Origin: an uncultured bacterium
GTDB lineage: Bacteria; Bacteroidota; Bacteroidia; Chitinophagales; Chitinophagaceae
Assembly: GCA_966112615.1 (NCBI GenBank)
Contig: CBHWDO010000012.1
Span: 22,004-86,003, forward strand
DNA length: 64,000 bases
Reading direction: 5' to 3'
Part shown: positions 26,860 through 62,525 of the stretch, piece by piece
Position numbering within the stretch: position 1 is the stretch's first letter
Layout: the number at the start of each line of letters is the position of its first letter
Notes under the pieces: model-generated
What the model was told of the DNA's origin: nothing
The model's input: the letters and a program-made list of their open reading frames with translations, nothing else
Databases searched by the model: none
Program-made: the position numbers and the translations under genes

Positions 26860-26877
26860 AATAAGATTGTTGTTCGA

Positions 26878-40968: not shown

Positions 40969-40989
40969 GTTAGTATTCTTTGTAATATT

Positions 40990-43782
40990 CTATCGGGCAT
41001 CTTTCACGCATCGGAAACCGACGGTTGAATTTCGTTCAAATCCTTGTGAAACGCGCAATAAATATTGACGATAATGTAATTCTCTTGGACCGCTCTGTAC
41101 ATACCACCAGCTGCTGGATGGTTTGTAATAGCTTCCACCCTTCATCATGATATAACGATAACTGCCGCTTTCATACAAATCATTCGTGAGTTGCCATACA
41201 GATCCAACAAGATCCTGCAAGCCATATGGGTTTGCACCTTTCGGATAAGATCCCACACGATGCAACTTGCCATCTCCAAGGTTCACCAGCGTTGAATCAA
41301 TTCCATCCAATGCAGATGTGGAAAGGGTTTCATTGACATACTGGATCTTTCTTTTAACAGGTGTTTCCTGCTTCCATGGCCATTCATTTAATTCAGGAGT
41401 CTGTGCAGCATATTGCCATTCAATCTCAGTTGGCAATCTTTTGCCGGCCCATTTTGCATAGGCCTTCGCATCTTCATAGCTAACATATACAACAGGGAAG
41501 TTTCCTTCACCGGATTTGAAATTTCCTTTCACCCAATGCTTCAGAAAATTTGCTGTATCAGTCGGGCGATATTTTGTTGACTGCAAAAATTCTTTGAACT
41601 GCTCATTGGTTACAGGAAAAATATCCATGTAATAAGATGACATATCAAAAGTTTCACCGGTATCTTCTTTTGGATAAGAGATCGCTTCATCACCATTGGT
41701 CGCATGGAAAGAAAATTTTCCCGCAGGGATCTTTACCATTCCTTTTGGAGTGGATGATGCACCGGTGGTTTTAACTATATCAGAAATTTTTCGACTATCG
41801 CCTGGTTTGATCGTCACCAAAGTTTCATCCAATAAAATACCATCCTGCATTAACTGGATAATGAAATCACCTTCAAACCTTCCGAATTTTTCGTGGAGAT
41901 TCAGCGAATGTTTTCCGGGCTTTAGTTTCAATGGTGTTTTTTCATAGGAAGGATGCCCAGCCCAGATCAGCAACTCAGAGCCCTTATCAGCACTAAGTTC
42001 CAGGCGATCGCCTTTTAATTTCGCATTGATCAGTACAGGTAATTGTGCAATACAATCCACTTCACCTTCATTGTTTGTTCCAAGGTATGAAGCATTGAAT
42101 GCATCAGTTTCCACTTCAATCAATTGCTTACCATCTTTTAAAACAGGCTGCAATAATTTATGATGCCAGAGATCAACAAAATGGTATCCTTCTTTTGGCT
42201 GCACTTCAAAGAGTAATCCTTTATAACCCTGTGGATGCAGGCTATACACCGTATAAATGGTCTTCTGTTCATTGGGCCATTTGTTCACCCAGATATTATC
42301 TGAAGTGGTTTCAATCAATGGCACCCAATTTCTAGAAACAAAGTTGTGTGTGTTCTCACGAAGGATCCTGCTGGTTCTTCCGAGATAACGGTATTGATCG
42401 ATCACCCAATCAGGTTGTCCTGGCGACATGATATTCAATTCAGTTCCATAACCATTAAAGAAGGATGTTGCAAATTCACGTTGGATCTTTTCCTTCTTTA
42501 CTTCAGCCACCCTAAAAATCGCAAACTCTGGTTTGATGAGTTTGTTCAGGTTAAGCATCGGTGGATAATACAATGCATTGTGTACGCGACCAGATGGAAT
42601 ACCGCTCATATGCATGGGCACCGCCATACCTTCACTGTACATGATCACGCCTTTGCGTACTTTGTCGGCAGCATCCTGCAATTCCTTACTTGATTCACCT
42701 TTGGTATCGAGCACCACTCCGTCAGCAGCGGTCTCTTTGATCAGATCCGCGATTCCACCGAGGTGATTTTCGCTGCGTGTACTTTCATCCCATGGATTGT
42801 AACACACAAACAGTTTTGAATTCTGCTTGTGCAATTGCTCAGAAAGTCTGCGCATTTCTTTTGTTCCACCGGGAAGATCACGGAACAGGTCGAACTGGTT
42901 ACGCTGATCGAGTCCTAGTGTTGGCCAGGTTGGCCAGATGCTGATGATCTCATCTCCACCATATAATTTCTTACCACGCTCGAGGAAATCCATTACATGA
43001 AATTTCCCATCCTTATAATCATAATAGAATTTATCCCAGGCCATGAACAGATGCATCACATAAGAATGACGGATCCATTTCAGATCTTCGCGCTCGAATA
43101 AACTATTATCAAATTTCTCCACATCATAGATCATGCGGGATTGGAATGTTTGCGTGAGAGCGTCCCGCCAGTTATTTCCTGCAAGCTCTGCATAGAACAG
43201 ATATTGTACGGAGCCACCTGGATAAAGGATTGTTTCAAATCTTGTACGAGTTCCCTTATCAATGCTTGCGCGATTCCTTCTTACGATTGATGTAATGGAA
43301 ACCTTTTCATTCACAGGAACATTGCTGTAACCCAGGTCCCATGCGTTATCCGGAACGATCACATTCACAGGATTCTTTCCAGGAACGAACAGGTGAGTTC
43401 GGGAAAGGCCATGATCGCCTTTCCCGGTAATTACTACATGCTCACCTCCTAAACCAAACGGTACTACATTTTTAAGTTTGACAGTATCCTTTGATTCGTT
43501 CTTGAATACAATGTTTCCTTTAACGCCTGAAGCAAAGGGTTGGAAATTATTCCATGCGATCCTGATCGCTTTTGATCCATCAATGGATGAATGCTGCTGA
43601 TCATTCACGATATAACTTACAATGGGAAGCCTTGATTTCAATTTATATTGATTACTTCCTGCAGTGATATTTTCTGCAACAAGTGAATCCTTACTAAATC
43701 CAATACTCTTTAAGATATCCTGTGCAAATGATCCTATAGAAAGGCTCATTGCCAAAGAAAATAAACTGGCGAATCGTCTCAT
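40990..43782 (-). CDS. Secreted 930-aa fusion of an uncharacterised ~690-aa N-terminal region and a C-terminal FGE/SUMF1-like domain
   Basis: It has a signal peptide. The C-terminal ~240 aa carry FGE-sulfatase-family blocks (FPVTNEQFKEFL, RLPTEIEWQYAA, GSVWQLT, MKGGSYY, VGFRCVKD). I recognised no motif in the N-terminal region. Confidence 0.75.
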   Translation of the reverse strand: MRRFASLFSLAMSLSIGSFAQDILKSIGFSKDSLVAENITAGSNQYKLKSRLPIVSYIVNDQQHSSIDGSKAIRIAWNNFQPFASGVKGNIVFKNESKDTVKLKNVVPFGLGGEHVVITGKGDHGLSRTHLFVPGKNPVNVIVPDNAWDLGYSNVPVNEKVSITSIVRRNRASIDKGTRTRFETILYPGGSVQYLFYAELAGNNWRDALTQTFQSRMIYDVEKFDNSLFEREDLKWIRHSYVMHLFMAWDKFYYDYKDGKFHVMDFLERGKKLYGGDEIISIWPTWPTLGLDQRNQFDLFRDLPGGTKEMRRLSEQLHKQNSKLFVCYNPWDESTRSENHLGGIADLIKETAADGVVLDTKGESSKELQDAADKVRKGVIMYSEGMAVPMHMSGIPSGRVHNALYYPPMLNLNKLIKPEFAIFRVAEVKKEKIQREFATSFFNGYGTELNIMSPGQPDWVIDQYRYLGRTSRILRENTHNFVSRNWVPLIETTSDNIWVNKWPNEQKTIYTVYSLHPQGYKGLLFEVQPKEGYHFVDLWHHKLLQPVLKDGKQLIEVETDAFNASYLGTNNEGEVDCIAQLPVLINAKLKGDRLELSADKGSELLIWAGHPSYEKTPLKLKPGKHSLNLHEKFGRFEGDFIIQLMQDGILLDETLVTIKPGDSRKISDIVKTTGASSTPKGMVKIPAGKFSFHATNGDEAISYPKEDTGETFDMSSYYMDIFPVTNEQFKEFLQSTKYRPTDTANFLKHWVKGNFKSGEGNFPVVYVSYEDAKAYAKWAGKRLPTEIEWQYAAQTPELNEWPWKQETPVKRKIQYVNETLSTSALDGIDSTLVNLGDGKLHRVGSYPKGANPYGLQDLVGSVWQLTNDLYESGSYRYIMMKGGSYYKPSSSWWYVQSGPRELHYRQYLLRVSQGFERNSTVGFRCVKDAR

Positions 43783-44208: not shown

Positions 44209-45684
44209 TTACATTTCATTTCCTACTCCACCGAAAGTGTAGAATGGCATTTTGTGCAGGATCAGTTCATTCGCTGGAACAGGGAAATGAAACAGTGTTC
44301 CTGGCCTTAGTTCTCCTCTTCTTCTGCGATCGAAATAACCCAAATGCGCATGAACGAAATCTGTTTCTACATAACGCTCATAGAAGATTGCATCAAGTAA
44401 TGCTTCTTTCGATTCATTACCTGTCAATGCAGCAAGATTTCCATTTGTAACCCTGGTCTTGTTCACCAATTCAGCTATTTCAGTTCCTGCTTTTCCTGAT
44501 CGCGCAGCAGCCTCCGCCATCAGCAGATCATTCTCAGCCTTTAGAAAATGCGGGAAGAACCCTGAATTGTTATTCGCAACATTTTCATACCGCACATACT
44601 TGTATTCACTCAGCATGTTGTATCCTCTCGTGTTTGGATTCCATCCTGTATGTCTTCCAACATATTGGAAGTAGGTTGTCAGTCTTTTATCAGGAGAAGT
44701 TACCGGACCTAAAGAAGCCACTCCATCAGGCCATGGATATTGTGCATTCGGATCATTCGGAGCCATCATATTGATCACGCGCTGGTGAACCCTCATCCAG
44801 TCCCAGGCCATTAATTGCAGGTGATTGAGAAAATCCCTGGAGATTACTTTTCCAACCCAACCATCTTTCCATTGGATTCCCCAATCTGACTGCAATCCTT
44901 CTTTTGTATAATCATACACCCGGTTCCAGTTAACCTGGTCGGACTGTGCAGGAGTTCTTGGTGAACATGCCAGGATCCTTGCTGCCATTGAGCTTGCGAA
45001 TGCTTTTAGTGTCTGGTTAGTAAACGTCATTCCAGGAACCATTTCAACAGGATCGGTGAACTGTGCATTGGATGCGATCGCAATGCCTTTATCGATTGAA
45101 CTCAAAGCAAACTCTACAATTTCATTGTATCCTTTCAATTCATAAGAATAGTTTTCGAAATTGGTATTCTCATCAACGATGAACGCCTTATCATAAAACA
45201 ATCCCAGGTGACCATACAGTATTCCCTGCAATACATAGGCATTTGCCAGTACGCTGTTGGTATGATCCGTATTTCCGATCACGACTTTCTTTCCATCGGT
45301 TGTCAGTGCTTTGATGATCCTGTTCACATTTGGAATGGCACTGTAGTATCCATACCATGCAGCTGCAGGGGGCGACAATACCACATCATCCATCAGATCA
45401 TTGGGTACTGATGCTCTTGGAACTTTGTAGTAATCAAAGGAGCTCCAGCTTCCATATCCTGAAGTGATCACTTCAGCATTGGTCAGTGCAAAGGTTGGAG
45501 ATGGCGATACACTTGTATTCCAGAAGCTATTGTATGCGCCACTTAATATTGAAGGATAGGTTTCTGTTGCTGCCATTACAGTCTCACTGTCGGGCGCATT
45601 CTCATTCACCACATCCAGGTCGCTGATCTTTTCGCATCCACTTAATGCGAAAAGAAATATCAAACTATATATTAATTTCTTCAT
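44209..45684 (-). CDS. SusD/RagB-family lipoprotein
   Basis: It has a lipoprotein signal (FALSGC) and lies directly downstream of a SusC gene (gap 9 nt). Confidence 0.88.
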   Translation of the reverse strand: MKKLIYSLIFLFALSGCEKISDLDVVNENAPDSETVMAATETYPSILSGAYNSFWNTSVSPSPTFALTNAEVITSGYGSWSSFDYYKVPRASVPNDLMDDVVLSPPAAAWYGYYSAIPNVNRIIKALTTDGKKVVIGNTDHTNSVLANAYVLQGILYGHLGLFYDKAFIVDENTNFENYSYELKGYNEIVEFALSSIDKGIAIASNAQFTDPVEMVPGMTFTNQTLKAFASSMAARILACSPRTPAQSDQVNWNRVYDYTKEGLQSDWGIQWKDGWVGKVISRDFLNHLQLMAWDWMRVHQRVINMMAPNDPNAQYPWPDGVASLGPVTSPDKRLTTYFQYVGRHTGWNPNTRGYNMLSEYKYVRYENVANNNSGFFPHFLKAENDLLMAEAAARSGKAGTEIAELVNKTRVTNGNLAALTGNESKEALLDAIFYERYVETDFVHAHLGYFDRRRRGELRPGTLFHFPVPANELILHKMPFYTFGGVGNEM

Positions 45685-45693
45685 GATGATTAA

Positions 45694-48600
45694 TTAAAAG
45701 GTGATCGCAATGTTTCCACTGAGTGTTCTGTAAACAGGATAAGTGTGCACGTCAAACTTCAGGATGTTTGAATCAACACCTTCCTGGTTGCTGCCGGTTT
45801 CAGGACTGTATCCTGTGTATTTTGTCAGCATGAAAAGATTTCTTCCCACGAAACCAATTCTTACATTGGTAAGATTGATATTTCCAAACTTCACATTCCT
45901 GAAATCATAGTTCAATCCCAATTCACGCAGTGAAAGGAAATCTGCATCTTCCACGAAAAATTCGTTGTTCCACTCTTTCAACTTCACATAGTAACGCTCA
46001 GGCTTTCTTTGCTCGTAAGGTTTACCTGACTGGTCAGTTTCCGCACTTGCAGTAGTATATCTTCTTGTATGATTATAGGTTTGACCTCCATTCTGCCATG
46101 CCAGCAGGAAATAAAGATTCAATCCCTTGATCGTAAAGTTTGATGTGAAGTTCAAGTTGAAATTAGGATTCACATTCCCGATATAACTGTTGAGTGGTTG
46201 TCCCTTTGAATCAGTGATATACACCGGCTCTTCCTGTGGAGTTCCGATCTGTGTAGTACGTACTACATATCCTTCATTGTTTACCACGAAAAGATCCTGG
46301 ACATTTTGTCCTGCAGGTACCTGGTTCATCACATCATCCAGGCTTCTTGCCCATTTGCGGCCATACAGTGTTCCGAAGTTCAGACCTTCTTCGATTCTGA
46401 AGATCCCTGCAGATACGATCGCGTAACCTGACCTGTTCAGCTTCGAAACTTTTTGCCTGCTCCTGTCGAAAGTGAATCCAACATCCCAGGTAAGATCTTT
46501 TTTCTCCAACACAGTACCTCTCAAGGTAAATTCAAGTGAATTTGTTTTGATCTCTGCAGCATTCTGGTACTGGTAAGCAGCACCCGTAATAGCAGAAACA
46601 GGAACCGGAAGGATCAGGTCTTTACTAACACCATTTGCATAGGTTGAAGTGAATGACCAGCGCTTTGCGAACTGGATATCCAATCCCACTTCAAATTCTT
46701 CATTTACTGAAGGCCTGAGTTTTTTATTACCCAAGGTAGATTGTGAACCAATGCTTCCATTCACAAGGGTGAAAGTTTCATATTGAGCTTCGAATGGCGG
46801 ACGAAGACCAGCAGTACCGTAAGCAGCACGCAGCTTCATATCGCTGATTCCAGGGATCTTGAAATCCTGTGTCATTCTCCATGCAGCAGCAACACGATAG
46901 AATGTGCTCCAGCGCGCATCGGATCCAAACAATGACACACCATCTCTTCTTACCAGGGCATCAACAATGTACTTGTCTTTATAATCTGTATTGATCGATG
47001 CAGAATAGTTATCCGCGATCACCTGTGATTTGTAAGAACTTCCATACTGCTTCTCAGCCTGCGAAATATTAGTGATGTTCATACCAAGCACTGCAAGATT
47101 CTGCCCGGTAGCACTTACATTCTCATATTCTGAGGCTTCATGCAAATATTGAACTTTGAACCTGGTATTGAAGTCACCGAAGTTTCTTGTATGTCCTGCA
47201 TCAAACTGGATTGTTTGTGCAGTGGTAGTGGATGCATTTTTCGAAATGGATCCATTGTCGGTAAGATTCGGATCACTCACTCTTAATTTTCCTTTTGGAG
47301 AAATAAATAATGAGTTACTGAAGATATTATCCAAACCATAAGACAAAGAAAGATTGGTATTCTTCACCGGCTCATACTGCAAACTGTAATTACCAAGAAA
47401 ACGCTGGCGTTCCAGTTCGCTTCTTGAGTTTGCAATATCATACAGCGGATTACCAATCAATGCATTGATCTTATTTGGATTTACTATATAGGGAGAGCCA
47501 TTAACATTTTTGGCAAGCAGATCTGCATTGGGATCGCTTTGCATTAGATTGCTCCAAACACCTGAACCCCTGTTATCGATCTTTGTTTTTGCATAAAGAT
47601 TGGAGGTGGAGAATTTCAGGTTATTCGTGATCTTGTAATCGAGGTTCACTTTTACGTTGGTACGCTGTTGACCGTTGGTCATTTCAACGACACCAGCTTC
47701 TTTGGTTGTTTGAACCGAACTGTACATCGAAGCTTTTCCATCTGCACTCTTACCTGCAAAGGATAAATAGTTAGTGAAGTATTGTCCGGGCCTGAAGAAT
47801 TGCTTCGCCTGGTCGCGAACCACCGGGAATTTATTATCAATTAAACCATCCGGTGCGGGCTTTGAATAATCCACTTCACCATTTTCCACCAGGTAATTTG
47901 TTGCAGTAGATCTTTCCGGAACATAACCAACAAAGCTTCTTCCATATTCAGAACGGAAGTTTACTACAGTTTTTCCTGATGCAAGTTGCTGTCCTCTTTT
48001 AGTGATGATATTGATTACACCGTTTGCAGCTCTTGATCCATACAAGGAAGAACCCGCAGCACCTTTTACTACTTCAATTGATGCAATATCTTCCGCATTA
48101 AGATCCTGTAGGTTTCCTTCAGTCAATACTCCATCAATAATGATCAATGGATTGTTTGATCCGAAGATCTGTTTGGCTGCCCTTAACTGAATATTGGTAC
48201 CCGATCCAGGATCGCCCGACCTGTTCAATCTTAATCCTGAAACCTTACCCTGCAATACTCCTGCTGCATCCGTTGCCGGAACATTCTTAAATGCTTTCTC
48301 ATTGATCTTCTCTACAGAGAAAGGAACTTTCTTTTGAGATGTTGCGGAAGAAACACCGGTTACCACAACATCTTCCATTACTCTCACATCATTCTCAAGC
48401 TGAATGGCAGTGGTCGTTCCGGGTTGTGCAGTAATTTCTACTGAACGAAAACCAACAGAGCTGACCTCCAAGGTAACAGGTACGGAAGAAGAAGTATTGA
48501 GCTGGAAATTTCCCTGCTCATCAGATACAGTACTGTTGTTACTGTTCTTAATGGTGATGGTTGCACCCTGCACAGGATTATTGTTACTCCTGTCAGTAAT

Positions 48601-48699
48601 TTTTCCTTTGATCACTCCCTGCTGCGCCATCAATAAGGAAGATGACAATAGCATTATAATGACCATCGTAAGCAATCGAATAGTTGTTTTGTACCTCAT
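45694..48699 (-). CDS. SusC/RagA-family TonB-dependent transporter
   Basis: It has a signal peptide, a CarboxypepD_reg-like domain (IKGKITDRSNNNPVQGATITIKNS), a plug domain, a barrel and a C-terminal ...NIAITF. Confidence 0.92.
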   Translation of the reverse strand: MRYKTTIRLLTMVIIMLLSSSLLMAQQGVIKGKITDRSNNNPVQGATITIKNSNNSTVSDEQGNFQLNTSSSVPVTLEVSSVGFRSVEITAQPGTTTAIQLENDVRVMEDVVVTGVSSATSQKKVPFSVEKINEKAFKNVPATDAAGVLQGKVSGLRLNRSGDPGSGTNIQLRAAKQIFGSNNPLIIIDGVLTEGNLQDLNAEDIASIEVVKGAAGSSLYGSRAANGVINIITKRGQQLASGKTVVNFRSEYGRSFVGYVPERSTATNYLVENGEVDYSKPAPDGLIDNKFPVVRDQAKQFFRPGQYFTNYLSFAGKSADGKASMYSSVQTTKEAGVVEMTNGQQRTNVKVNLDYKITNNLKFSTSNLYAKTKIDNRGSGVWSNLMQSDPNADLLAKNVNGSPYIVNPNKINALIGNPLYDIANSRSELERQRFLGNYSLQYEPVKNTNLSLSYGLDNIFSNSLFISPKGKLRVSDPNLTDNGSISKNASTTTAQTIQFDAGHTRNFGDFNTRFKVQYLHEASEYENVSATGQNLAVLGMNITNISQAEKQYGSSYKSQVIADNYSASINTDYKDKYIVDALVRRDGVSLFGSDARWSTFYRVAAAWRMTQDFKIPGISDMKLRAAYGTAGLRPPFEAQYETFTLVNGSIGSQSTLGNKKLRPSVNEEFEVGLDIQFAKRWSFTSTYANGVSKDLILPVPVSAITGAAYQYQNAAEIKTNSLEFTLRGTVLEKKDLTWDVGFTFDRSRQKVSKLNRSGYAIVSAGIFRIEEGLNFGTLYGRKWARSLDDVMNQVPAGQNVQDLFVVNNEGYVVRTTQIGTPQEEPVYITDSKGQPLNSYIGNVNPNFNLNFTSNFTIKGLNLYFLLAWQNGGQTYNHTRRYTTASAETDQSGKPYEQRKPERYYVKLKEWNNEFFVEDADFLSLRELGLNYDFRNVKFGNINLTNVRIGFVGRNLFMLTKYTGYSPETGSNQEGVDSNILKFDVHTYPVYRTLSGNIAITF

Positions 48700-50059: not shown

Positions 50060-52078
50060 ATGGTTCGAGCGAAAAAAATGCTGCTGGGAATCTCCCTGTC
50101 GCTAATGTCACTTGCAGCTGTTGCACACAATTCTGCAGATACTACCAAAACTAATTACCTGCAAAACAGAATGCCGCTAATTTCCAAGCCTTACCTGGAA
50201 CTTCCTATTGGAGCCATCAAGCCAAAAGGATGGATGCTGGAACAGCTGTTAAGGATGAAGAAAGGTATGGCAGGACAGCTTGATCAGCTCTATCCTTCAG
50301 TTCTTGGAAAAAGAAACGGATGGCTTGGCGGTGATGGTGATGTTTGGGAAAGAGGTCCATACTGGTTAGATGGACTGGTTCCGTTAGCATATATCCTTGA
50401 TGATAAAGAATTGCAGGCAAAGGCTCAGACCTGGATTGAATGGTCGCTCAACAACCAGATGGCCGATGGATATTTCGGTCCAATTCCTCCTGAAAAAGAA
50501 CCTTCTCCTGAACCCGGTTTGCAGCGTGACCGTGCGCGCGACTGGTGGCCAAAGATGGTGATGCTGAAAGTACTTCAACAGTATTATAATGCAACACAGG
50601 ATAAGCGCGTGATCGATTTGATGTTGAAATATTCAAGGTACCAGTTAAAGACATTGCCAAACACTCCCCTTGGACATTACTCCTGGTGGGGATCGCAGAG
50701 AGGTGGTGATAACCTGCTGGTGGTGTACTGGCTCTATAACCTTACAGGAGAAAGATTCTTACTTGATCTTGCAAATACCATTCATAAACAATCTTACGAT
50801 TGGACAGGAACATTTTTATACACTGATCTATTGCAGGGTGATTATAAATTTCATGGTGTGAACCTCGCGCAGGGAATAAAGGAACCGGTGATTTATTACC
50901 AGCAAAATAAGGATCAGAAGCAGGTGGATGCAGTGAAGAGAGCATTCCAGATGATACAGGCTTACCAGGGACAGGCACAGGGAATGTATGGAGCAGATGA
51001 ACTTACAAGAGGTAATGATCCGGTGCAGGGTTCAGAATTATGTTCTGCAACGGAATTGATGTATTCGATTGAAAACATGATGGCGATCACAGGTGATGTT
51101 GCGATGATGGATCATTTGGAGAAGATAGCATACAATGCATTGCCAACACAGATCGATGATGAATACATGAACAGGCAGTATTACCAGCAGGCAAACCAGG
51201 TGATGGTATCAAGACATCATAGGAATTTTGTTACAGCCTATGATGGAACAGATCAGTGTTTTGGTTTACTGACTGGCTTCCCATGTTGTACAACCAATAT
51301 GCACCAGGGCTGGCCGAAATATGTTCAGAGTTTATGGTTTGCTACAGAAGACAATGGGGTGGCGGCTTTGATGTATTCATCATCTGAAGTAAATGTAAAA
51401 GTTGCGAATGGAACAGAAGTGAAATTCATTGAAGAAACAGAGTATCCATTTGAAGACAATATTAAGTTTACGTATAAAGGAAAGAACAACATGGTGTTTC
51501 CTTTTCATGTAAGAATACCTGCATGGTGTGAGCAGGGGATCATTAAAGTCAATGGAGAAGAATGGATGAAACCAAAGGGCAACCAGGTCGTGAAGATGAA
51601 TCGCAAGTGGACTAACAATGATGTAATTGAACTCGTGTTACCAATGAAGGTATCATTGAGCAGGTGGTTCAATAATTCTGTGGCGGTAGACAGAGGTCCA
51701 CTGGTGTATGCGCTTCAAATCAAAGAAGATTGGAAGAACGTTCCTGCAACAGATCGATATGGAAGTTACAAGGAAGTAAGGCCGTTGACTCCATGGAATT
51801 ATGGTCTTGCGGAATCAACCTTGAAGAATATCGATAGTTCTTTTGTTGTGAAGAAGAAAAAGATCAATTCAAATTATCCATGGAACCCGGAGAGTAACCC
51901 GATCGAGATTCATACCCGCGGAAAAGTGATTCCAGAATGGACGCTGTACAATGAAACTGCAGGACCGATACCATACAGTACAATCAATTATTTGAAAGAT
52001 GCACCGGAAGTGAATATTGTGCTGGTGCCTTATGGAACTTCGACGCTGAGGATAGCGCAGTTCCCGGTGGTGAAATAG
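50060..52078 (+). CDS. GH127-like (DUF1680) beta-L-arabinofuranosidase-family protein, divergent paralog
   Basis: It has a signal peptide. E-x-C (SELCSA) and CC (GFPCCTTNMHQGWPK) motifs sit in positions equivalent to those of the 39010 gene. Confidence 0.75.
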   Translation: MVRAKKMLLGISLSLMSLAAVAHNSADTTKTNYLQNRMPLISKPYLELPIGAIKPKGWMLEQLLRMKKGMAGQLDQLYPSVLGKRNGWLGGDGDVWERGPYWLDGLVPLAYILDDKELQAKAQTWIEWSLNNQMADGYFGPIPPEKEPSPEPGLQRDRARDWWPKMVMLKVLQQYYNATQDKRVIDLMLKYSRYQLKTLPNTPLGHYSWWGSQRGGDNLLVVYWLYNLTGERFLLDLANTIHKQSYDWTGTFLYTDLLQGDYKFHGVNLAQGIKEPVIYYQQNKDQKQVDAVKRAFQMIQAYQGQAQGMYGADELTRGNDPVQGSELCSATELMYSIENMMAITGDVAMMDHLEKIAYNALPTQIDDEYMNRQYYQQANQVMVSRHHRNFVTAYDGTDQCFGLLTGFPCCTTNMHQGWPKYVQSLWFATEDNGVAALMYSSSEVNVKVANGTEVKFIEETEYPFEDNIKFTYKGKNNMVFPFHVRIPAWCEQGIIKVNGEEWMKPKGNQVVKMNRKWTNNDVIELVLPMKVSLSRWFNNSVAVDRGPLVYALQIKEDWKNVPATDRYGSYKEVRPLTPWNYGLAESTLKNIDSSFVVKKKKINSNYPWNPESNPIEIHTRGKVIPEWTLYNETAGPIPYSTINYLKDAPEVNIVLVPYGTSTLRIAQFPVVK

Positions 52079-55313: not shown

Positions 55314-56192
55314 ATGGCAAAACAAAATAGAAACTGGAATCAGCAGAGAGAAGATAATTGGTCATGGGATAACAACCGCGACAGGGATCAGCGATATGAT
55401 GATTCACGAAACCGCGAACAATATGGCAACTACGGTAATGTAGGCTATGGCTATAACAGCAATAATTTCGACAACAACAGGAACGACAGGAGAAATAACG
55501 AATGGCGTTCCAATGACTGGCGTGATAATGACTGGAGAAATAATAATGACAGGATGAACAGCGGTTATGGTTCCAATAACCAGAATTATGGATCCAGCCA
55601 GTATCGTTCTGCATGGGACCGCGGTGATGAGATTGGTGAAGGTAAATTCGGAATGAATTATGGTCGTGAAGATTTTGGAAGAAGAGATGCAGGATACATG
55701 AATGATTACGGAAACCGTGGAGGATATAGAAATGATTCTTCCAATTCTCGTCCAAGAAGAGACTGGTGGGACAAAACAGTTGATGAAGTATCATCCTGGT
55801 TTGGTGATGATGAAGCAAGGCGGAGAAGAGAAAGAGATGAACGCAGCATGGGAGGACATAGAGGAAAGGGTCCGAAAGAATACAAGCGTTCACAGGAAAG
55901 GATCCAGGAAGATGTAAACGACAGGCTAAGTGATGATGATTATGTAGATGCTTCTGACATCCAGGTGCAGGTACTGAATAATGAAGTGATCCTGACCGGT
56001 AGTGTAAAAACAAGAGAGCAGAAGCGCAGGGCGGAAGACCTGGTGGAATCAGTTTCCGGCGTGCACAATGTTGAGAACCGCATCAAGGTTTCTAGAGATG
56101 AAAACAACACGGTGAATGATGTTTATTCTCACCAGAGAACTACCACGATCAGTGATGATGTAGCGGATAGTGAGAGGAACAGGATCGTTTAG
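55314..56192 (+). CDS. BON-domain protein with a long Asn/Arg/Asp/Trp-rich disordered N-terminus and a SWFGDDEA motif
   Basis: The C-terminal BON domain reads DVNDRLSDDDYVDASDIQVQVLNNEVILTGSVKTREQKRRAEDLVESVSGVHNVENRIKV. The SWFGDDEARRRRERDE motif is present. The N-terminal ~150 aa are low-complexity (NDWRDNDWRNNNDR...). Confidence 0.8.
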   Translation: MAKQNRNWNQQREDNWSWDNNRDRDQRYDDSRNREQYGNYGNVGYGYNSNNFDNNRNDRRNNEWRSNDWRDNDWRNNNDRMNSGYGSNNQNYGSSQYRSAWDRGDEIGEGKFGMNYGREDFGRRDAGYMNDYGNRGGYRNDSSNSRPRRDWWDKTVDEVSSWFGDDEARRRRERDERSMGGHRGKGPKEYKRSQERIQEDVNDRLSDDDYVDASDIQVQVLNNEVILTGSVKTREQKRRAEDLVESVSGVHNVENRIKVSRDENNTVNDVYSHQRTTTISDDVADSERNRIV

Positions 56193-56307: not shown

Positions 56308-56334
56308 AAAAAGGCGCCTTACCGGCGCTTTTTT
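56308..56334. terminator. Bidirectional intrinsic terminator between the BON gene and the GT2 gene
   Basis: The stem aaaaaggcgcc (56308-56318) / ggcgctttttt (56324-56334) has a 5-nt loop. An A-run on one side and a T-run on the other give a U-tail on either strand. It overlaps the GT2 stop codon. Confidence 0.75.
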
Positions 56335-57752
56335 CATGCCCCCGCCGGAGCACTGAATCCCTTCCTGGTCATATCACCCCAGGATTTCTTCTTTCTTAAA
56401 AGATCTATGATCCCGCGAATAGAAGACCATACAACGAACGGATGAAAGATCAATGGTTCAAGCAATGCTGCGACCATTAACCGGGGAACCGCCTTATCTT
56501 TTTTATACTCGTTATATGTTGCCACTTCCATCAATATTGCAAACAGAGAATACAGAAAACCAAAACTCAGGATGAACAACAGCAACAGGAAAAAGAATGT
56601 CCAGTTCATCAATCCCAGTATTGCAAGCACCAGGAAGAACACTAACCCGATGGTCTCCACAACAGGTGCCATCAATTCAAAGAAGAACCAGTACGGGTAA
56701 CTCAACATGCCAAGGATACCATACTTCGGATTGAAGAACATTCTCTTATGCAACTGAAGTGTTTCAATAGTTCCACGCATCCACCTGTTGCGCTGCCTTC
56801 CCAATATTTTAAAATCAGAAGGAACTTCGGTCCAGCATAAGGGGTCAGGAATATAACTTACAGTATAAGGCAGTTTGTTTTCATGCATATACCTTCTCAT
56901 GCGTACGACCAGTTCCATATCTTCTCCAACTGTTGCATGATTGTATCCGCCTGCCTTGATAACTATTTCGCGGTCAAATGCACCGAATGCACCGGAGATC
57001 AGCAAAAGCCCATCCATCCTGGCCCAGGCCATCCTGGCCAGCAGAAATGAACGGATATATTCCAGCGTTTGCATTCTTGCGATCATATTCTTTGGAAGTC
57101 TAACTTCTTCCAGCATACCATTTCTGATCACGCAGGAATTTGCGATCCTGATCACTCCACCGGTTGCAATAACTCGCTTCTTTCCCGGTTCTAGGAAGGG
57201 CTTCATCAGTTTAATGATCGCATCCTGTTCCAGTATACAATCCACATCTATACAAACAATATATCTTCCTTTTGATACATTGATCCCAACATTCAGTGCA
57301 TCAGCCTTTCCACCATTGATCTTATCAACAACAACCAACCTTGAAAAAACAGGCATGGTACTCCTGTAAACTCCACGGATCTGCTTCGTATCAATTTCAC
57401 AATTGATTTTTTCATCGGAAAGCACCATGGCATATTGATCCACTACTTTCTTTAAAGTATTATCCTTACTTCCATCATTGATGATAATGATCTCCAGTTT
57501 ATCGTAATGGATATTCAATAGTGATCTGACATTCTCAACAATCGTAGCTTCTTCATTGTATGCAGGTGCGAGAAGACTTACGGTCGGCGAAAACTCGGTA
57601 ACAAGCAGGTTATTATAGTTAGTGAAACTTGCCTTACGCAAATGGTTCCTTGTTTCACCCACAGAATACAAAGCAATGAAAATGTAAAAACTTAATAAAA
57701 CAATTGAATACAGCAGAATGGAGTATACAAGGATCTCCGTAATTAATTCCAT
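56334..57752 (-). CDS. Membrane-embedded processive family-2 glycosyltransferase (PgaC/IcaA/YaiP-like synthase)
   Basis: It has an N-terminal TM helix, GT2 motifs (INDGSKD, GGKADALN, DVDC, VGEDMEL, GRQRNRWMRG = QxxRW) and about 4 C-terminal TM helices. Confidence 0.88.
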   Translation of the reverse strand: MELITEILVYSILLYSIVLLSFYIFIALYSVGETRNHLRKASFTNYNNLLVTEFSPTVSLLAPAYNEEATIVENVRSLLNIHYDKLEIIIINDGSKDNTLKKVVDQYAMVLSDEKINCEIDTKQIRGVYRSTMPVFSRLVVVDKINGGKADALNVGINVSKGRYIVCIDVDCILEQDAIIKLMKPFLEPGKKRVIATGGVIRIANSCVIRNGMLEEVRLPKNMIARMQTLEYIRSFLLARMAWARMDGLLLISGAFGAFDREIVIKAGGYNHATVGEDMELVVRMRRYMHENKLPYTVSYIPDPLCWTEVPSDFKILGRQRNRWMRGTIETLQLHKRMFFNPKYGILGMLSYPYWFFFELMAPVVETIGLVFFLVLAILGLMNWTFFFLLLLFILSFGFLYSLFAILMEVATYNEYKKDKAVPRLMVAALLEPLIFHPFVVWSSIRGIIDLLRKKKSWGDMTRKGFSAPAGA

Positions 57753-58588
57753 ACAACCTCCTCTTCAGATAATTCTTTAAATACCTCTAATGCATACGCA
57801 CGAACATGTTGTGATGGATGTGATCTTAAGACATCAATCTCCTCCACCAATTCAAAACATGAATGTATGAACGCGATCTTCAATCCAAGTATGATAATGC
57901 AATCATTATGAACCTGCATCATCCTGCTGACAAGCCATGAATGTGAGAACTGGTGATAACTCAATTCATCGATCAGGCAGATATGCTGCCATTCACTGAT
58001 GGTATGTGGCATGTAAAGCAGCTCGCTTAATCCATCAAATCCTTTTAGTCTTACTAAGCCAATTTGCGCTTCGGTTCGCACATGAATATTTCTATCATTG
58101 ATATAAGTCAGCAGGATCTCCACTGCACAGCTATCTTCAAATCTTGCGATAGCCTGTACAGCGTGAGCACGACGATGCCAATGCCAGTTTTTCAATTCTT
58201 TATAAATCACAGTTTTCAAACCAAGCTTCCGGTATAGCATCTGAATATGTTCTAACGCAATTCCTTTTAATGAAATCGAGGCCTGTGTTAACTTTCTAAC
58301 GACTACCAGGCTGTCCTTCCGGCTGGAACAAATTTCCAATAATGTTTGCTTTACATCCTGCTGTGCAAGAAATATTTCAAATTCATCATGATCCTCACAG
58401 ATCGATAACTTGCTGATAATATCATCCAGCTTTTCATTCAGCATATTTTCATGTCGCTGCCTGAACTGTGCAACGATCATCAAAACTATAATGAGGAACA
58501 CCAGTAAAATAATAATGGCAACAAAGAATATCATCGCCATCACCAGCTGGTGAGAATTGAAAAAATTCTGGATATCGCAGGTATACAT
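57743..58588 (-). CDS. Single-pass membrane protein with HEAT-like repeats
   Basis: The N-terminal TM helix is MAMIFFVAIIILLVFLIIVLMIVAQF. Repeated helical-pair motifs contain HVR/RRAHA (NIHVRTEAQIGLVRL, SQHVRAYALEVFKEL). The stop overlaps the GT2 start by 10 nt. Confidence 0.65.
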   Translation of the reverse strand: MYTCDIQNFFNSHQLVMAMIFFVAIIILLVFLIIVLMIVAQFRQRHENMLNEKLDDIISKLSICEDHDEFEIFLAQQDVKQTLLEICSSRKDSLVVVRKLTQASISLKGIALEHIQMLYRKLGLKTVIYKELKNWHWHRRAHAVQAIARFEDSCAVEILLTYINDRNIHVRTEAQIGLVRLKGFDGLSELLYMPHTISEWQHICLIDELSYHQFSHSWLVSRMMQVHNDCIIILGLKIAFIHSCFELVEEIDVLRSHPSQHVRAYALEVFKELSEEEVVWN

Positions 58589-58593
58589 TCCGC

Positions 58594-58947
58594 TTAGGAT
58601 GTTAGTTTTTTTACTCGGATAGTCAGTTCATTCGGACTAAAAGGCTTGGTCATATAATCATCTGCTCCAAGATTGAAAGCTTCCAGTACGGTTTTTTCCT
58701 GTCCCATTGCAGATAAAACGATGATCGGGACTTTGCGCTCACTGTTCTTGACGAACGAAACGATCTCCAGGCCTGAAACATAGGGCATCATGATATCTGT
58801 GATCACCAGTTCAGGTGATTCATTCTTTATCAGGTCAATGGCAGAGCGTCCATCCTCTGCAGTCAACACTTCATAGCCATCCTTTTTCAACTTAAGCGCA
58901 ATTGTTTTCAACATCAATGGTTCGTCTTCTGCAACCAGTATTCTCAT
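58594..58947 (-). CDS. Single-domain (CheY-like) response regulator
   Basis: The 117-aa protein is REC only (MRILVAEDE...LVITDIMMPYVSG...KPF). It has no output domain. Confidence 0.9.
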   Translation of the reverse strand: MRILVAEDEPLMLKTIALKLKKDGYEVLTAEDGRSAIDLIKNESPELVITDIMMPYVSGLEIVSFVKNSERKVPIIVLSAMGQEKTVLEAFNLGADDYMTKPFSPNELTIRVKKLTS

Positions 58948-58958
58948 AGTTTGGATAT

Positions 58959-61535
58959 TTATATGATCGCTAATCTTTTTGATAATTCATCTTCAATCAA
59001 AGGGCTCACTTCACTGAACTGCACCATAAGATCATTCAACAATGTATCTACCTGTTTCCATTCGTTTTCGCCCAGGTGAGCTTTATCTCTTGTCAGGGAT
59101 TCCACCACATGGCATGTATTCAACATACCATTGATCTTCAGTAATCCCAATGCAGATTTTAATTTATGTACGGTAAAGAAAACCGACTCAGGGTTCCGGT
59201 TTGAATAAGCATCCTGTATGCTCTGAAGTGCATCCGGCGTGGTTTGCAGGAAATGAGCCAATACTTCTCCTGTATATTTATCATCCCCCAGTTCATTCAG
59301 AAATTGAAGATCAAAAACTGCGTTGTCTTCTTTCTTTTCCCAGATCACCGGAACAGTCTTTTCACCGAGCAATCTTGAAATGGAAGCAAATAATTCAGCC
59401 TGGTCAAATGGTTTGGCGATATAATCATTCATGCCAAGCTTCAAGCATTTATTTCTTTCATCCTGGAGTACGCTTGCCGTCATCGCAATGATAGGCGTGT
59501 GAATTTTGAGATCATTCCTGATTACTGTAGTGGTTCTGTATCCATCCAGCTCAGGCATGTGAAGATCCATGATGATCAGGTCAAACTGCTGACCCTTATC
59601 AAGTATTTCAACAGCTTCCTTTCCATGATTGGCAATGGTGTATTCAATTCCAACCTTTCTCAGTGTCTGTGATATTACCATCTGGTTGATCTCATTGTCT
59701 TCAACGATGAGCACTTTTCTTCCTTTCAACAAGGTAAAATCAACCGGTTCATGCCTGATGGCAACTGGCTTAACTTTTGTCTGCGCAAGATCATAAGGAA
59801 TGGTAAACCTGAATGTGGTACCCTTACCATGAACGCTTTCAACGCTGATCGTTCCATCCTGTAATTCTATCAGTTTTTTGGTAATGGACAGACCAAGTCC
59901 TGTTCCACCAAATTCACGTGTGATACTGTTGGTGCCCTGTTCAAAACTTTTGAAGATCGATTCAAGCTTATCCTGTTCTATTCCAATTCCAGTATCAGCT
60001 ACCGAAAAATGAAGCTCAACTTTTCCCGAAGAAACCCGCTTCTCTTCAATGGTCAGGATAACACTGCCTTCTTTAGTAAATTTGATCGCATTTCCCAACA
60101 GGTTGTTCAGGATCTGTATCAACCTGAATTGGTCTCCCACAATATGCAATGGGAAATCAATATTACTGTTGACCTCAAAATTTATATTGTTGAATTTGGC
60201 CTTGATATCAAACGGTGTAGCCACCGAATCAAGCACTTCATTCAATTCAAATGGAACTTTCTCAATGTTCAGTTTACCCGCTTTGATCTTCGACAAATCA
60301 AGAATATCATTGATCAGGAATAACAATGTATCGGAAGATTTCTTGATGGTTTTTACAATACTTCTTTGCTCACTGGTCAATACAGTACTGGAAAGGATAT
60401 CGGTCATTCCCACAATACCATTCATTGGTGTACGTATCTCATGGCTCATATTTGCAAGGAAGGTTTCCTGTAGTCTTTCTGCAGATTCAGCCTTCTTTTT
60501 AGCGGCTAACAATTCCTCCTGGTATTTGATCCGCTCAGTAACTTCCCGGGTCGAGATACAAATGTTCTCTACAATTCCTTTTTCATTTTTTACAGGATAG
60601 AAAACTGTTTCATACCATCTTGGACCCATCGGTGAATTAAGCTTCACATCACCGATCTGCATTTCACCCTGGATCACTTTTTCAAAAATTGCCTGGTAGT
60701 ATGGAATTCTTTCAGGAGGAAAGAAATCAAAGAACTTCATTCCTTCCTTCAGTTCCTTACCCGAATGCTGGACGCTCATTTCGTTTGCATGCTCATTGAT
60801 CAGTACAAGCGTTGAATCTTTCTTGATCAGTATGACTGCTTCTTTAGCACTGTTCAGGACAGCACTCATCCTTTGTTGAGATTCCGCAAGCCTGGATTCC
60901 GCTTCTTTCCTGTTATTCATTCCCCTGTTAAGTATCTGGAGAATTCCAATGATGATAATGAATGCAATGATGGATGATATAAACTGAAGTGAATAATTAG
61001 CTTCAAGCGACTCTACATTTTCAGAAAAATTGGAAGTAAGAATCTTTCCTTCTCTTTGTTTGATAGAATGAATACTGGTAAGGATCTCTTCCATCAACTC
61101 TTTGCCCTTCATGGTTTTGATCAGATTCTTTCCACCTTCCTGTTTATCCTGGAAATGTTCCCTGATAATCTGGTCATTGAAGTTGACTTTCTGGTTTACA
61201 AAGGAATCCAGCCTTAGAATATCTGCATACTGAACGGGATTATGACTATTCCAGACTTTAAGTTTCGCAATACTGCTCTTGATGGAATCCTTTCTTCTTG
61301 AAAGATCATTGATGAATTCCTTGCGGTCAGAAATTACAAAGCCCCTGGTATTTGATTCAATATTGGAGGTAAGTGCTTCAACATTATCCAGTTCAGTAAT
61401 GACTTTCCCGGTGTGTGTTACCCACTCCTGGTTCTTCAACACCTGGCGGTGGTTGATATTGATAAGTGTAAGGAAGACAACTACAAACAGGGTGGTAAAG
61501 ATGCCAAAGGCCAGTATCTGCTTCTGAACTTTCAT
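58959..61535 (-). CDS. Hybrid sensor histidine kinase (CHASE3-TM-PAS-HisKA-HATPase-REC-HPt)
   Basis: It has an N-terminal TM helix plus a CHASE3-like region, a second TM helix and a PAS domain. The H-box is FLANMSHEIRTPMNGI and the HATPase motif is GTGLGLSI. The REC domain reads DLIIMDLHMPELDG and the C-terminal HPt reads HKLKSALGLL. Confidence 0.88.
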   Translation of the reverse strand: MKVQKQILAFGIFTTLFVVVFLTLININHRQVLKNQEWVTHTGKVITELDNVEALTSNIESNTRGFVISDRKEFINDLSRRKDSIKSSIAKLKVWNSHNPVQYADILRLDSFVNQKVNFNDQIIREHFQDKQEGGKNLIKTMKGKELMEEILTSIHSIKQREGKILTSNFSENVESLEANYSLQFISSIIAFIIIIGILQILNRGMNNRKEAESRLAESQQRMSAVLNSAKEAVILIKKDSTLVLINEHANEMSVQHSGKELKEGMKFFDFFPPERIPYYQAIFEKVIQGEMQIGDVKLNSPMGPRWYETVFYPVKNEKGIVENICISTREVTERIKYQEELLAAKKKAESAERLQETFLANMSHEIRTPMNGIVGMTDILSSTVLTSEQRSIVKTIKKSSDTLLFLINDILDLSKIKAGKLNIEKVPFELNEVLDSVATPFDIKAKFNNINFEVNSNIDFPLHIVGDQFRLIQILNNLLGNAIKFTKEGSVILTIEEKRVSSGKVELHFSVADTGIGIEQDKLESIFKSFEQGTNSITREFGGTGLGLSITKKLIELQDGTISVESVHGKGTTFRFTIPYDLAQTKVKPVAIRHEPVDFTLLKGRKVLIVEDNEINQMVISQTLRKVGIEYTIANHGKEAVEILDKGQQFDLIIMDLHMPELDGYRTTTVIRNDLKIHTPIIAMTASVLQDERNKCLKLGMNDYIAKPFDQAELFASISRLLGEKTVPVIWEKKEDNAVFDLQFLNELGDDKYTGEVLAHFLQTTPDALQSIQDAYSNRNPESVFFTVHKLKSALGLLKINGMLNTCHVVESLTRDKAHLGENEWKQVDTLLNDLMVQFSEVSPLIEDELSKRLAII

Positions 61536-61736
61536 GGAATAATGGATCTGGATTACTAATCAATGTAAAATAACCGCTTAGAAGCCTTTTCATTATGTTT
61601 ATACCATCCTATGTTTAGGACAGTAATAGAAAACCCTTATTGTATTTAGGAATTTTACATATAAACCAAAATTGTATTCCCTCCCGAAAAATGCAATCGA
61701 TTCATATATATCTACTTTGCAGAAGATTTAAATCCT

Positions 61737-62525
61737 ATGTTATACCGAATTTCCATTCTTTCCCTGGTGCTACTAACAGTGATGGGTAACCGAAGTTTTG
61801 CCCAGCAGAAAGATTCCCTGCTGAACGAGGTTAAACTGAATTATGGATTGATCAATAACAATAATCCTTCTTCTTCAAACTGGCAGTTAACTTCCCTTGA
61901 ATACAAACGTAATACTTCATTTGGACCGCTCATTGCAAGAATGAATTATGGAAACTGGCTTGGTAAAGATGGACTGCAGTTTGAAGCCGAAGCATATCCT
62001 TCCTTTTCCAAAAAGGTCTATAGCTATGCCGGTATCGGGTATTCCAATGCCATGCCGATATTCCCGAAATTCCGTGCAGGGTACTCGCTGTTCGTTAATC
62101 TACCAAAGGCCTTTGAAGTTGAAGGAGGATTCAGGTATCTGAAATTTGATAAAGACATTTTCATCTATACCATCGGTGCCAGTAAGTACCTTGGAAACTG
62201 GCTGATCAATGCAAGATCCTTCCTAACGCCCATGGATAACCGAATTGAACAGTCCTACCTATTTACAACCAGGAAATATTTCGGGGAAAATAATCAATAT
62301 GCTTTTCTGCAGGGAGGCTACGGAATATCACCGGATGAGAACCGGAATATTCAACTGATCACCAATACCCGGTTGAAAACTTACCGCATCTCTGCAGGAT
62401 CCTGGCTCAACATCACCAGGACCCTGCAGGCGCAGTTTGAATTCGGTTACTCTCAAAATGAACTATCAGAAACAGTCAACAATAACCAGTTCTTCGGAAC
62501 TGTTGGTCTCGCTAAAAAATTCTAA
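61737..62525 (+). CDS. YaiO-family outer-membrane beta-barrel protein
   Basis: It has a signal peptide (...GNRSFAQQ). The ~240-aa barrel-like sequence, rich in aromatic/Gly strand ends and ending in ...VGLAKKF, resembles the YaiO family as I recall it. The call needs HMM confirmation. Confidence 0.6.
   Translation: MLYRISILSLVLLTVMGNRSFAQQKDSLLNEVKLNYGLINNNNPSSSNWQLTSLEYKRNTSFGPLIARMNYGNWLGKDGLQFEAEAYPSFSKKVYSYAGIGYSNAMPIFPKFRAGYSLFVNLPKAFEVEGGFRYLKFDKDIFIYTIGASKYLGNWLINARSFLTPMDNRIEQSYLFTTRKYFGENNQYAFLQGGYGISPDENRNIQLITNTRLKTYRISAGSWLNITRTLQAQFEFGYSQNELSETVNNNQFFGTVGLAKKF

Follow-up and report, generated by a model that had tools for sequence, protein, structure and literature searches.

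How can a membrane-embedded polysaccharide synthase be switched on in bacteria that are reported to lack the usual second messenger? To our knowledge, all well-studied synthase-dependent exopolysaccharide systems, i.e., those for cellulose, poly-N-acetylglucosamine (PNAG), alginate, Pel and Nfr, are switched on by cyclic di-GMP (c-di-GMP). Bacteroidota have been reported to be without c-di-GMP synthesis (PMC10745434). The question is raised by a five-gene locus in a 64-kb stretch of DNA (64,000 nucleotides, contig CBHWDO010000012.1 of assembly GCA_966112615.1; hereafter the window) from an uncultured bacterium of the family Chitinophagaceae, in which genes for a hybrid sensor histidine kinase, a stand-alone receiver (REC) protein, a membrane-anchored HEAT-repeat protein and a membrane-integrated family-2 glycosyltransferase (GT2) form one operon, with a gene for a YaiO-family outer-membrane barrel facing it. 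Our analysis indicates that this gene set is a conserved Bacteroidota variant of synthase-dependent exopolysaccharide secretion. As a system it is well supported, and it is highly likely to be a dedicated synthase and export module with its own two-component input; the mechanism by which that input would reach the synthase is plausible.

The original prediction, which had been made from the nucleotide sequence and its open reading frames (ORFs), described a four-gene minus-strand operon with a divergently transcribed YaiO-like barrel gene, and this five-gene observation is confirmed in full (Table 1). The ORF coordinates returned exactly the claimed spacings, with 11 nt between the kinase and REC genes, 5 nt between REC and HEAT, and a 10-nt overlap between HEAT and GT2. 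The Pfam assignments likewise agreed with the predicted CHASE3/PAS hybrid kinase with REC and HPt domains, the REC-only regulator and the HEAT-like membrane protein.

To place the locus among its relatives, the HEAT alignment was scanned against one genome per species, and the five proteins of the window were then mapped onto the loci that were found. The scan yielded 31 loci, all of them in Bacteroidota, and approximately 35 in total when metagenome loci are counted. The REC-HEAT-GT2 set is held by Chitinophagaceae, Sphingobacteriaceae and Flavobacteriaceae, and carrier genera include Chitinophaga, Paracnuella, Hydrotalea, Segetibacter, Pedobacter, Mucilaginibacter, Maribacter and Robiginitalea. 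The order of the three genes is kept wherever the contig permits, and the HEAT and GT2 genes overlap by 4 nt in most loci. With exceptions of arrangement in L033, where REC lies beyond YaiO, and in L011 and L018, which encode a divergent 149-aa REC, the expected co-occurrence of HEAT and REC with the GT2 held in all loci found through HEAT; sampling that started from the GT2, as a safeguard against ascertainment bias, recovered the same module in three of three loci. A YaiO-family gene lies at most approximately 4 kb away in every complete locus and is fused to TPR repeats in most. In at least 14 loci a kinase gene directly precedes REC, and most of the other loci have one at another place in the cluster; the sensor domains of the kinases vary among loci, whereas the REC-only acceptor does not. 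Where the kinase gene has been relocated or is of another type, REC still stays directly upstream of HEAT-GT2.

The GT2 (62% median identity to its counterpart in the window) and REC (61%) are the most conserved parts of the module, followed by YaiO (39%), the kinase (33%) and HEAT (27%); the HEAT partner is the most specific marker of the module. Comparison with the syntenic relative L004 (71–97% identical) revealed strong purifying selection on all five genes, with ratios of nonsynonymous to synonymous polymorphism (pN/pS) of 0.04–0.23. Since the arrangement is conserved in approximately 35 loci and all five genes are under purifying selection, it is not due to chance.

The window contains a reduced form of a larger system. 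Most relatives add TPR repeats N-terminal to the YaiO domain, a polytopic sulfatase-superfamily protein of ~680 aa whose best named relatives are phosphoglycerol transferase I (OpgB) and LtaS, and a strongly conserved protein of ~390 aa with a single transmembrane (TM) segment and 64% mean column identity, for which profile searches found no Pfam, NCBIfam or PDB relative. In loci encoding the ~390-aa protein the LtaS/OpgB-like transferase is usually also there (not, for example, in L033), as is a TPR-YaiO barrel wherever the contig is complete. The GT2 and the sulfatase-family protein form a single fusion protein in three loci, which belong to two metagenome-assembled genomes (MAGs) of Hydrotalea sp. 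(L011 and L018) and to an unclassified Bacteroidetes MAG (L014), and it can therefore be argued that the two work together; by analogy with BcsA-BcsG, the fusions would imply a synthase-modifier complex. No homologue of either the ~680-aa or the ~390-aa protein was found anywhere in the 64-kb window. The minimal layout is also present in Paracnuella (L007), L023 and L042, and it is therefore a recurrent variant rather than the result of decay.

Judged by its sequence and its structural model, the GT2 appears to group with the processive membrane synthases that have their own TM channel. It matches the Pfam families Glycos_transf_2, Glyco_tranf_2_3, Glyco_trans_2_3 and Chitin_synth_2, which together constitute a membrane-synthase signature. 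The D, DxD, GED and QRNRW motifs and flanking TM helices that had been predicted were found as NDGS at residues 92–95 (D93), DVD at 169–171, GED at 276–278 and QRNRW at 320–324, with one N-terminal helix (7–25) and a C-terminal cluster at ~342–453. The best NCBIfam matches were the PgaC_IcaA and XrtG-associated glycosyltransferase profiles at ~131–133 bits, far under both equivalog cut-offs; for PgaC (TIGR03937) the score was 131.3 bits against a cut-off of 422.3. Alignment with E. coli PgaC gave 27% identity and 108 bits over the catalytic domain, and the gapped alignment with E. coli YaiP gave 24% identity and 51 bits. Of the original name, a "PgaC/YaiP-like" synthase, the first half stands, in that PgaC is the nearer of the two although the protein is far below the equivalog cut-off, and the second half does not; YaiP is distant, and the GT2 was ruled out as a YaiP orthologue on these values.

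The AlphaFold2 (AF2) model of the GT2 is of moderate confidence (mean predicted local distance difference test, pLDDT, 66) because the alignment was short of diversity, and its fold matches are therefore indicative only; the best were Chlorella-virus hyaluronan synthase (HAS), BcsA and yeast Chs1, with TM-scores of 0.5–0.57 for the hyaluronan and chitin synthases (CHS). Each of these three enzymes polymerises and translocates its product in one step. Both the profile and the fold matches agree with the expectation that the GT2 belongs with processive synthases and not with the GT2s that modify lipids or glycans. Furthermore, its cytosolic tail, SWGDMTRKG (458–465; window 56361–56384), contains five positions that are invariant in 45 homologues, i.e., W458, G459, M461, R463 and G465. 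By sequence, this tail resembles WGTRG, the essential gating loop of the Chlorella-virus hyaluronan synthase CvHAS (PMC11750622).

The HEAT partner scored barely over threshold in Pfam (HEAT_2, 30.7 bits against a cut-off of 27.7). Its AF2 model, with a pLDDT of 93.4, is all-helical and consists of a long helix (residues 12–63) holding the TM segment, followed by a HEAT/ARM-type alpha-solenoid, so that sequence and model together assign it, as a prediction, to the HEAT/ARM solenoids. PDB searches with the partner returned solely generic designed ARM and alphaRep repeat proteins, with TM-scores of at most 0.42. The solenoid is predicted to be cytoplasmic (N-out/C-in) because of the charge distribution, following the positive-inside rule, and because in long-form homologues the TM helix is preceded by a signal peptide and a LysM-like domain; this topology would put it in the same compartment as REC and the catalytic domain of the GT2. 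Among 5.8 billion proteins, a word-based search picked up only six relatives; among 1.84 billion cluster representatives, 225 matched the profile at E ≤ 1e-30 and 1082 did so at E ≤ 1e-10, most of them 350–390 aa long.

Long members of the HEAT family are extended at either end. N-terminal extensions consist of a signal peptide and a weak LysM domain; in P0121, P0143 and P0071 the LysM match is 18–21 bits and approximately 250 periplasmic residues precede the TM helix. The LysM domain hints that these partners may bind a GlcNAc glycan or peptidoglycan. C-terminal extensions are acidic and of low complexity, and in the Flavobacteriaceae loci (L030-L037; e.g., L031:7656-9719(+)) the partner reaches 690–840 aa, with a long extension of this kind and a further HEAT segment.

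The kinase is ordered as TM, periplasmic CHASE3, TM, PAS, HisKA, HATPase, REC and HPt, with Pfam matches to CHASE3, PAS_4, HisKA, HATPase_c, Response_reg and Hpt, and has its phosphorylation motifs in place: an H-box SHEIRTP at 364, the receiver motif MDLHMP at 656 and the HPt motif HKLK at 790. The REC protein matches Response_reg alone, has no output domain and keeps an intact acceptor pocket (phospho-acceptor D51, S79 and K101). By their sequences, the two proteins thus carry the residues of a predicted multi-step two-component phosphorelay. None of the loci inspected has a gene for a DNA-binding regulator in the cluster.

The barrel protein matched the YaiO family of Pfam (PF19413) at 198.9 bits against a cut-off of 23.9, and TIGR04390 at 153 bits against 32. 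In line with the predicted YaiO-like barrel, it has a signal peptide ending in SFA before QQ, a C-terminal Phe and ~14–16 amphipathic beta segments; the window protein was judged from profiles and an amphipathicity scan only. It has no TPR repeats, in contrast to the ~410-aa TPR+YaiO fusions of most relatives, whose barrels are matched by the PgaA profile in the TPR part only (22 bits). E. coli YaiO is included in a curated outer-membrane proteome, yet no homology model of it was possible (PMC7383365), and in the literature that we searched YaiO is essentially a PCR marker.

Regarding c-di-GMP, neither the five proteins nor the flanking genes contain any of the known receptor types (PilZ, the PgaCD interface, PelD, Alg44 or MshEN), and it is the REC-only protein that occupies the regulatory position. 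Domain scans of the same proteins and flanks detected no PilZ, GGDEF, PgaD or deacetylase gene, which bears out the absence of these genes noted originally.

Based on these results, we propose that the CHASE3 domain of the hybrid kinase would sense a periplasmic signal and that phosphate would pass from His to Asp in the internal REC, to His in HPt, and finally to Asp51 of the stand-alone REC protein. Because it has no output domain, this protein would act through protein contact, most likely with the cytoplasmic HEAT solenoid, which a single TM helix would hold beside the synthase and which the overlapping genes would keep in fixed stoichiometry with the GT2. The pair of HEAT and phosphorylated REC (REC~P) would turn the PgaC-like GT2 on or off, maybe via the invariant WG..TR.G cytosolic tail. 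The GT2 would polymerise a UDP-sugar, most likely with UDP-N-acetylglucosamine (UDP-GlcNAc) as the favoured substrate, and thread the chain through its own TM channel, after which the YaiO barrel would carry it over the outer membrane. Given a last relay acceptor that lacks an output domain, loci inspected without a gene for a DNA-binding regulator, and a REC gene that stays beside the HEAT-GT2 pair, contact of REC~P with the HEAT adaptor or the synthase is the simplest reading. REC~P in the place of the c-di-GMP receptors of the Pga, Bcs, Pel, alginate and Nfr systems would be consistent with all data. As a whole, the locus is best explained as a Bacteroidota-specific synthase-dependent exopolysaccharide system with its own phosphorelay, which we consider reasonably probable; for gating of the synthase by phosphorylation as the specific mechanism, the case is close to evenly balanced.

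Several observations weigh against this scheme. Fusions of REC with HEAT or of HEAT with GT2, which we sought among the long-form HEAT homologues as Rosetta-stone evidence for the putative contacts, were not found there. REC might instead serve as a sink for phosphate or have a target that is not linked to the locus, and our negative result for c-di-GMP covers the five proteins and the flanking genes rather than the host genome at large. The model of the GT2 reaches moderate confidence, and the cues for GlcNAc are all weak (the PgaC similarity, the HAS/CHS-like tail, and LysM at 18–21 bits in some HEAT partners), so that the sugar is a guess. As to the barrel, its strand number is a crude estimate from the amphipathicity scan, a PDB profile search returned TPR matches only and no solved relative, and the TPR domain of most relatives, which would bear on the passage of the chain across the periplasm, is missing. 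Some of these points would fit an arrangement in which synthase and export machine are the same and phosphorylation gates nothing, HEAT being merely a structural co-subunit like PgaD or IcaD and the two-component genes acting on transcription, or REC serving as a phosphate sink or feedback element. Single-domain receivers are frequently phosphate sinks or kinase modulators, and, beside the lack of any REC fusion to HEAT or GT2, conservation of the alpha4-beta5-alpha5 face of REC is not clearly above that of OmpR-type receivers. Nevertheless, the loci inspected offer no DNA-binding regulator to act on transcription, the REC gene remains directly upstream of HEAT-GT2 despite relocation or change of type of the kinase, and REC is about as conserved as the synthase itself (median identity 61% versus 62%); we consider this explanation rather unlikely.

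In another reading, the GT2 product is not secreted but is a periplasmic or membrane-bound glycan, such as an osmoregulated-glucan-like polymer or a glycolipid, with YaiO in some other role. The absence of TPR repeats from the YaiO of the window, the accessory transferase of the relatives, closest to OpgB, a decorator of periplasmic glucans, and the adjoining gene, which encodes a stress-type BON-domain protein, would agree with this. On the other hand, every complete locus has a YaiO barrel together with the GT2, mostly in the TPR-fused form that is a hallmark of synthase-dependent export porins, and the GT2 itself has QRNRW and a TM bundle, with channel-forming synthases as its fold matches; furthermore, we know of no osmoregulated periplasmic glucan system with an outer-membrane barrel of its own. 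This reading is improbable in our view. Even less probable, to a degree that we regard it as very remote, is a divergent member of the classical Pga (PNAG) system. Although PgaC_IcaA is among the two best NCBIfam matches of the GT2 and its homologues are labelled "PgaC" or "PNAG synthase-like" in several sources, its score of 131 bits falls far short of the equivalog cut-off (422), the barrel belongs to the YaiO family, and control would be by two-component proteins and not by c-di-GMP. The classical Pga assignment was rejected on the scores and on the lack of PgaD, the PgaB deacetylase/hydrolase and the PgaA porin in or beside the locus.

The preferred reading, a synthase and export module under phosphorelay control, was compared with known systems. 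In agreement with the original prediction, the literature that we searched contains no description of the architecture as a system and no paper on the gene module. The module follows the logic of synthase-dependent secretion, with a synthase, an inner-membrane partner and an outer-membrane barrel; it differs in the families to which the partner and the barrel belong and in its regulatory input. It shares with PgaABCD of E. coli a processive inner-membrane GT2 (27% identical over the catalytic domain), a small membrane partner from an overlapping gene, and an outer-membrane barrel, the barrels of relatives bearing TPR repeats as does PgaA. However, the partner here is a TM-HEAT solenoid with its gene upstream of that for the synthase, whereas in Pga the gene for the two-TM PgaD lies downstream; a PgaB deacetylase is missing, the barrel belongs to the YaiO family and not to PgaA, and the GT2 is far under the PgaC equivalog cut-off. 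In Pga, c-di-GMP binds at the PgaC-PgaD interface, in contrast to the phosphorelay and REC-only protein found here.

Features in common with the Bcs system are a GT2 with QxxRW that is predicted to form a channel (BcsA ranks high among its fold matches), a putative gating element in the cytosol close to the C-terminus and, in most relatives, a TPR-barrel as the presumed exporter. The tail is of the WG..TR.G (HAS/CHS) type, whereas the corresponding motif of BcsA is FxVTxK, and there is neither a PilZ domain nor BcsB. Relatives pair or fuse the synthase with a polytopic transferase of the alkaline-phosphatase/sulfatase superfamily, which recalls the BcsA-BcsG complex (PDB 9fmv); the transferase is nearer to OpgB/LtaS than to BcsG, a phosphoethanolamine transferase, and is missing from the window. 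NfrBA of E. coli is similar in being a minimal membrane GT2 plus outer-membrane protein with a dedicated local signalling input (PMC8669469). NfrB is gated by c-di-GMP through its MshEN domain and the specific cyclase DgcJ (PMC8669469), whereas here the input is a REC-only protein with a HEAT partner, and the outer-membrane component is of another family.

The original prediction had also pointed to E. coli K-12, where yaiO lies near yaiP, and the arrangement yaiS-yaiP-yaiX-yaiO was confirmed (NC_000913, 380069-384616, L038 in our set), with yaiX split by IS2. In this cluster, from another phylum, a membrane GT2 and a YaiO-family barrel are likewise encoded together, as a second and distant case. 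The product of yaiS, a PIG-L-type GlcNAc de-N-acetylase, is also a hint of a glycan with GlcNAc. The two clusters nevertheless differ: the GT2s are 24% identical at 51 bits, the barrels align weakly, YaiP has WRRWRRW instead of QxxRW, and the yai cluster includes no kinase, REC or HEAT gene and has all genes on one strand. Finally, the hyaluronan synthases (Chlorella-virus and vertebrate) and chitin synthases are the best structural matches of the GT2 (TM-score 0.5–0.57) and have a WGTRG-like gating loop. Yeast Chs3 requires the membrane-tethered alpha-solenoid activator Chs4 (Skt5), the same logic as that of the TM-anchored HEAT partner. These eukaryotic and viral enzymes differ from the module in their low identity (~15%), the lack of an outer-membrane step and the lack of two-component control, and Chs4 has Sel1 repeats and is unrelated to the HEAT protein.

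Table 1. Coordinates of the features of the locus in the window and of selected proteins in related loci
Feature	Position	Strand	Basis
Terminator-like GC hairpin (GCGCC-GGTAA-GGCGC) followed by CTTTTTCGTC	56314..56328	-	A few bases past the GT2 stop codon
GT2, membrane-integrated family-2 glycosyltransferase, 472 aa, PgaC-like processive synthase (predicted)	56334..57752	-	ORF, Pfam, NCBIfam, motifs, model
TM-HEAT, single-pass membrane protein, 281 aa, N-out/C-in (predicted)	57743..58588	-	ORF, Pfam, model
REC-only protein, stand-alone receiver domain, 117 aa	58594..58947	-	ORF, Pfam, motif residues
Hybrid sensor histidine kinase, 858 aa	58959..61535	-	ORF, Pfam, NCBIfam, motifs
Divergent intergenic region between kinase operon and YaiO gene, 201 nt	61536..61736	.	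ORF coordinates
YaiO-family outer-membrane beta-barrel, 262 aa, without TPR repeats	61737..62525	+	ORF, Pfam, NCBIfam, amphipathicity scan
~390-aa protein of relatives	L010:12521-13681(-), L040:12447-13613(-), L041:13864-15027(+); also L009, L012, L014, L026, L028, L029, L033	as given	Relatives' loci
GT2-sulfatase-superfamily fusions, 1160-1197 aa	L011:8925-12518, L014:8125-11613, L018:8921-12505	+	Relatives' loci

A T-run accompanies the GC-rich hairpin 3' of the GT2 gene, the last gene of the minus-strand operon, and the hairpin is likely to be the end of the operon. Promoters of the kinase operon and the YaiO gene presumably lie in the divergent intergenic region; a sigma-70 scan of that region gave fewer matches than shuffled sequence and identified no promoter, although the sigma-70 consensus may not suit the host. 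Promoters of Bacteroidota deviate from this consensus. The locus is flanked at one end by genes for BON, SurE, DAGK (DAG-kinase-like) and NDH-2 proteins and at the other by one for a GH2 beta-galactosidase, neighbours that bear no relation to polysaccharide synthesis or c-di-GMP. The YaiO stop overlaps the end of the convergent GH2 gene by 4 nt (62522-62525), and the 5' part of that gene, encoding the N-terminus, lies beyond the end of the window. The BON-domain gene (55314-56192, +) is convergent with the GT2 gene and is kept in the syntenic relative L004; the first ~190 residues of its product are N/D/R/G/Y/W-rich and of low complexity, with repeats such as NDWR and NNDR. Elsewhere in the window (25054-29982(-), 44209-48699(-), 39010-43782(-) and 50060-52078(+)) are two SusC/SusD pairs, GH127-like beta-L-arabinofuranosidases and a 930-aa protein with an FGE-sulfatase domain. 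These regions are polysaccharide-utilisation loci and are not related to the synthase cluster; their SusC/SusD genes mark the host as a member of the Bacteroidota.

For the control of synthases in Bacteroidota, the module offers a concrete alternative to c-di-GMP, i.e., a dedicated phosphorelay whose putative last member, a REC-only protein, is encoded beside the HEAT adaptor and the synthase. Soil and marine Bacteroidota carry the module widely (Pedobacter, Mucilaginibacter, Chitinophaga and Robiginitalea are examples), and it provides the first genomic context pointing to a role for the YaiO barrel family, so far without a solved structure or known function. It is possible, if somewhat doubtful at present, that this would be the first synthase-dependent exopolysaccharide machine gated by phosphorylation, in which REC~P docks on a membrane-anchored HEAT adaptor and opens the gating loop, and that the YaiO family would constitute a new class of outer-membrane polysaccharide export porins, in which case the orphan yaiO cluster of E. 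coli would gain a function as well. The polymer may matter for biofilm formation, soil aggregation or plant colonisation by the bacteria that carry the module.

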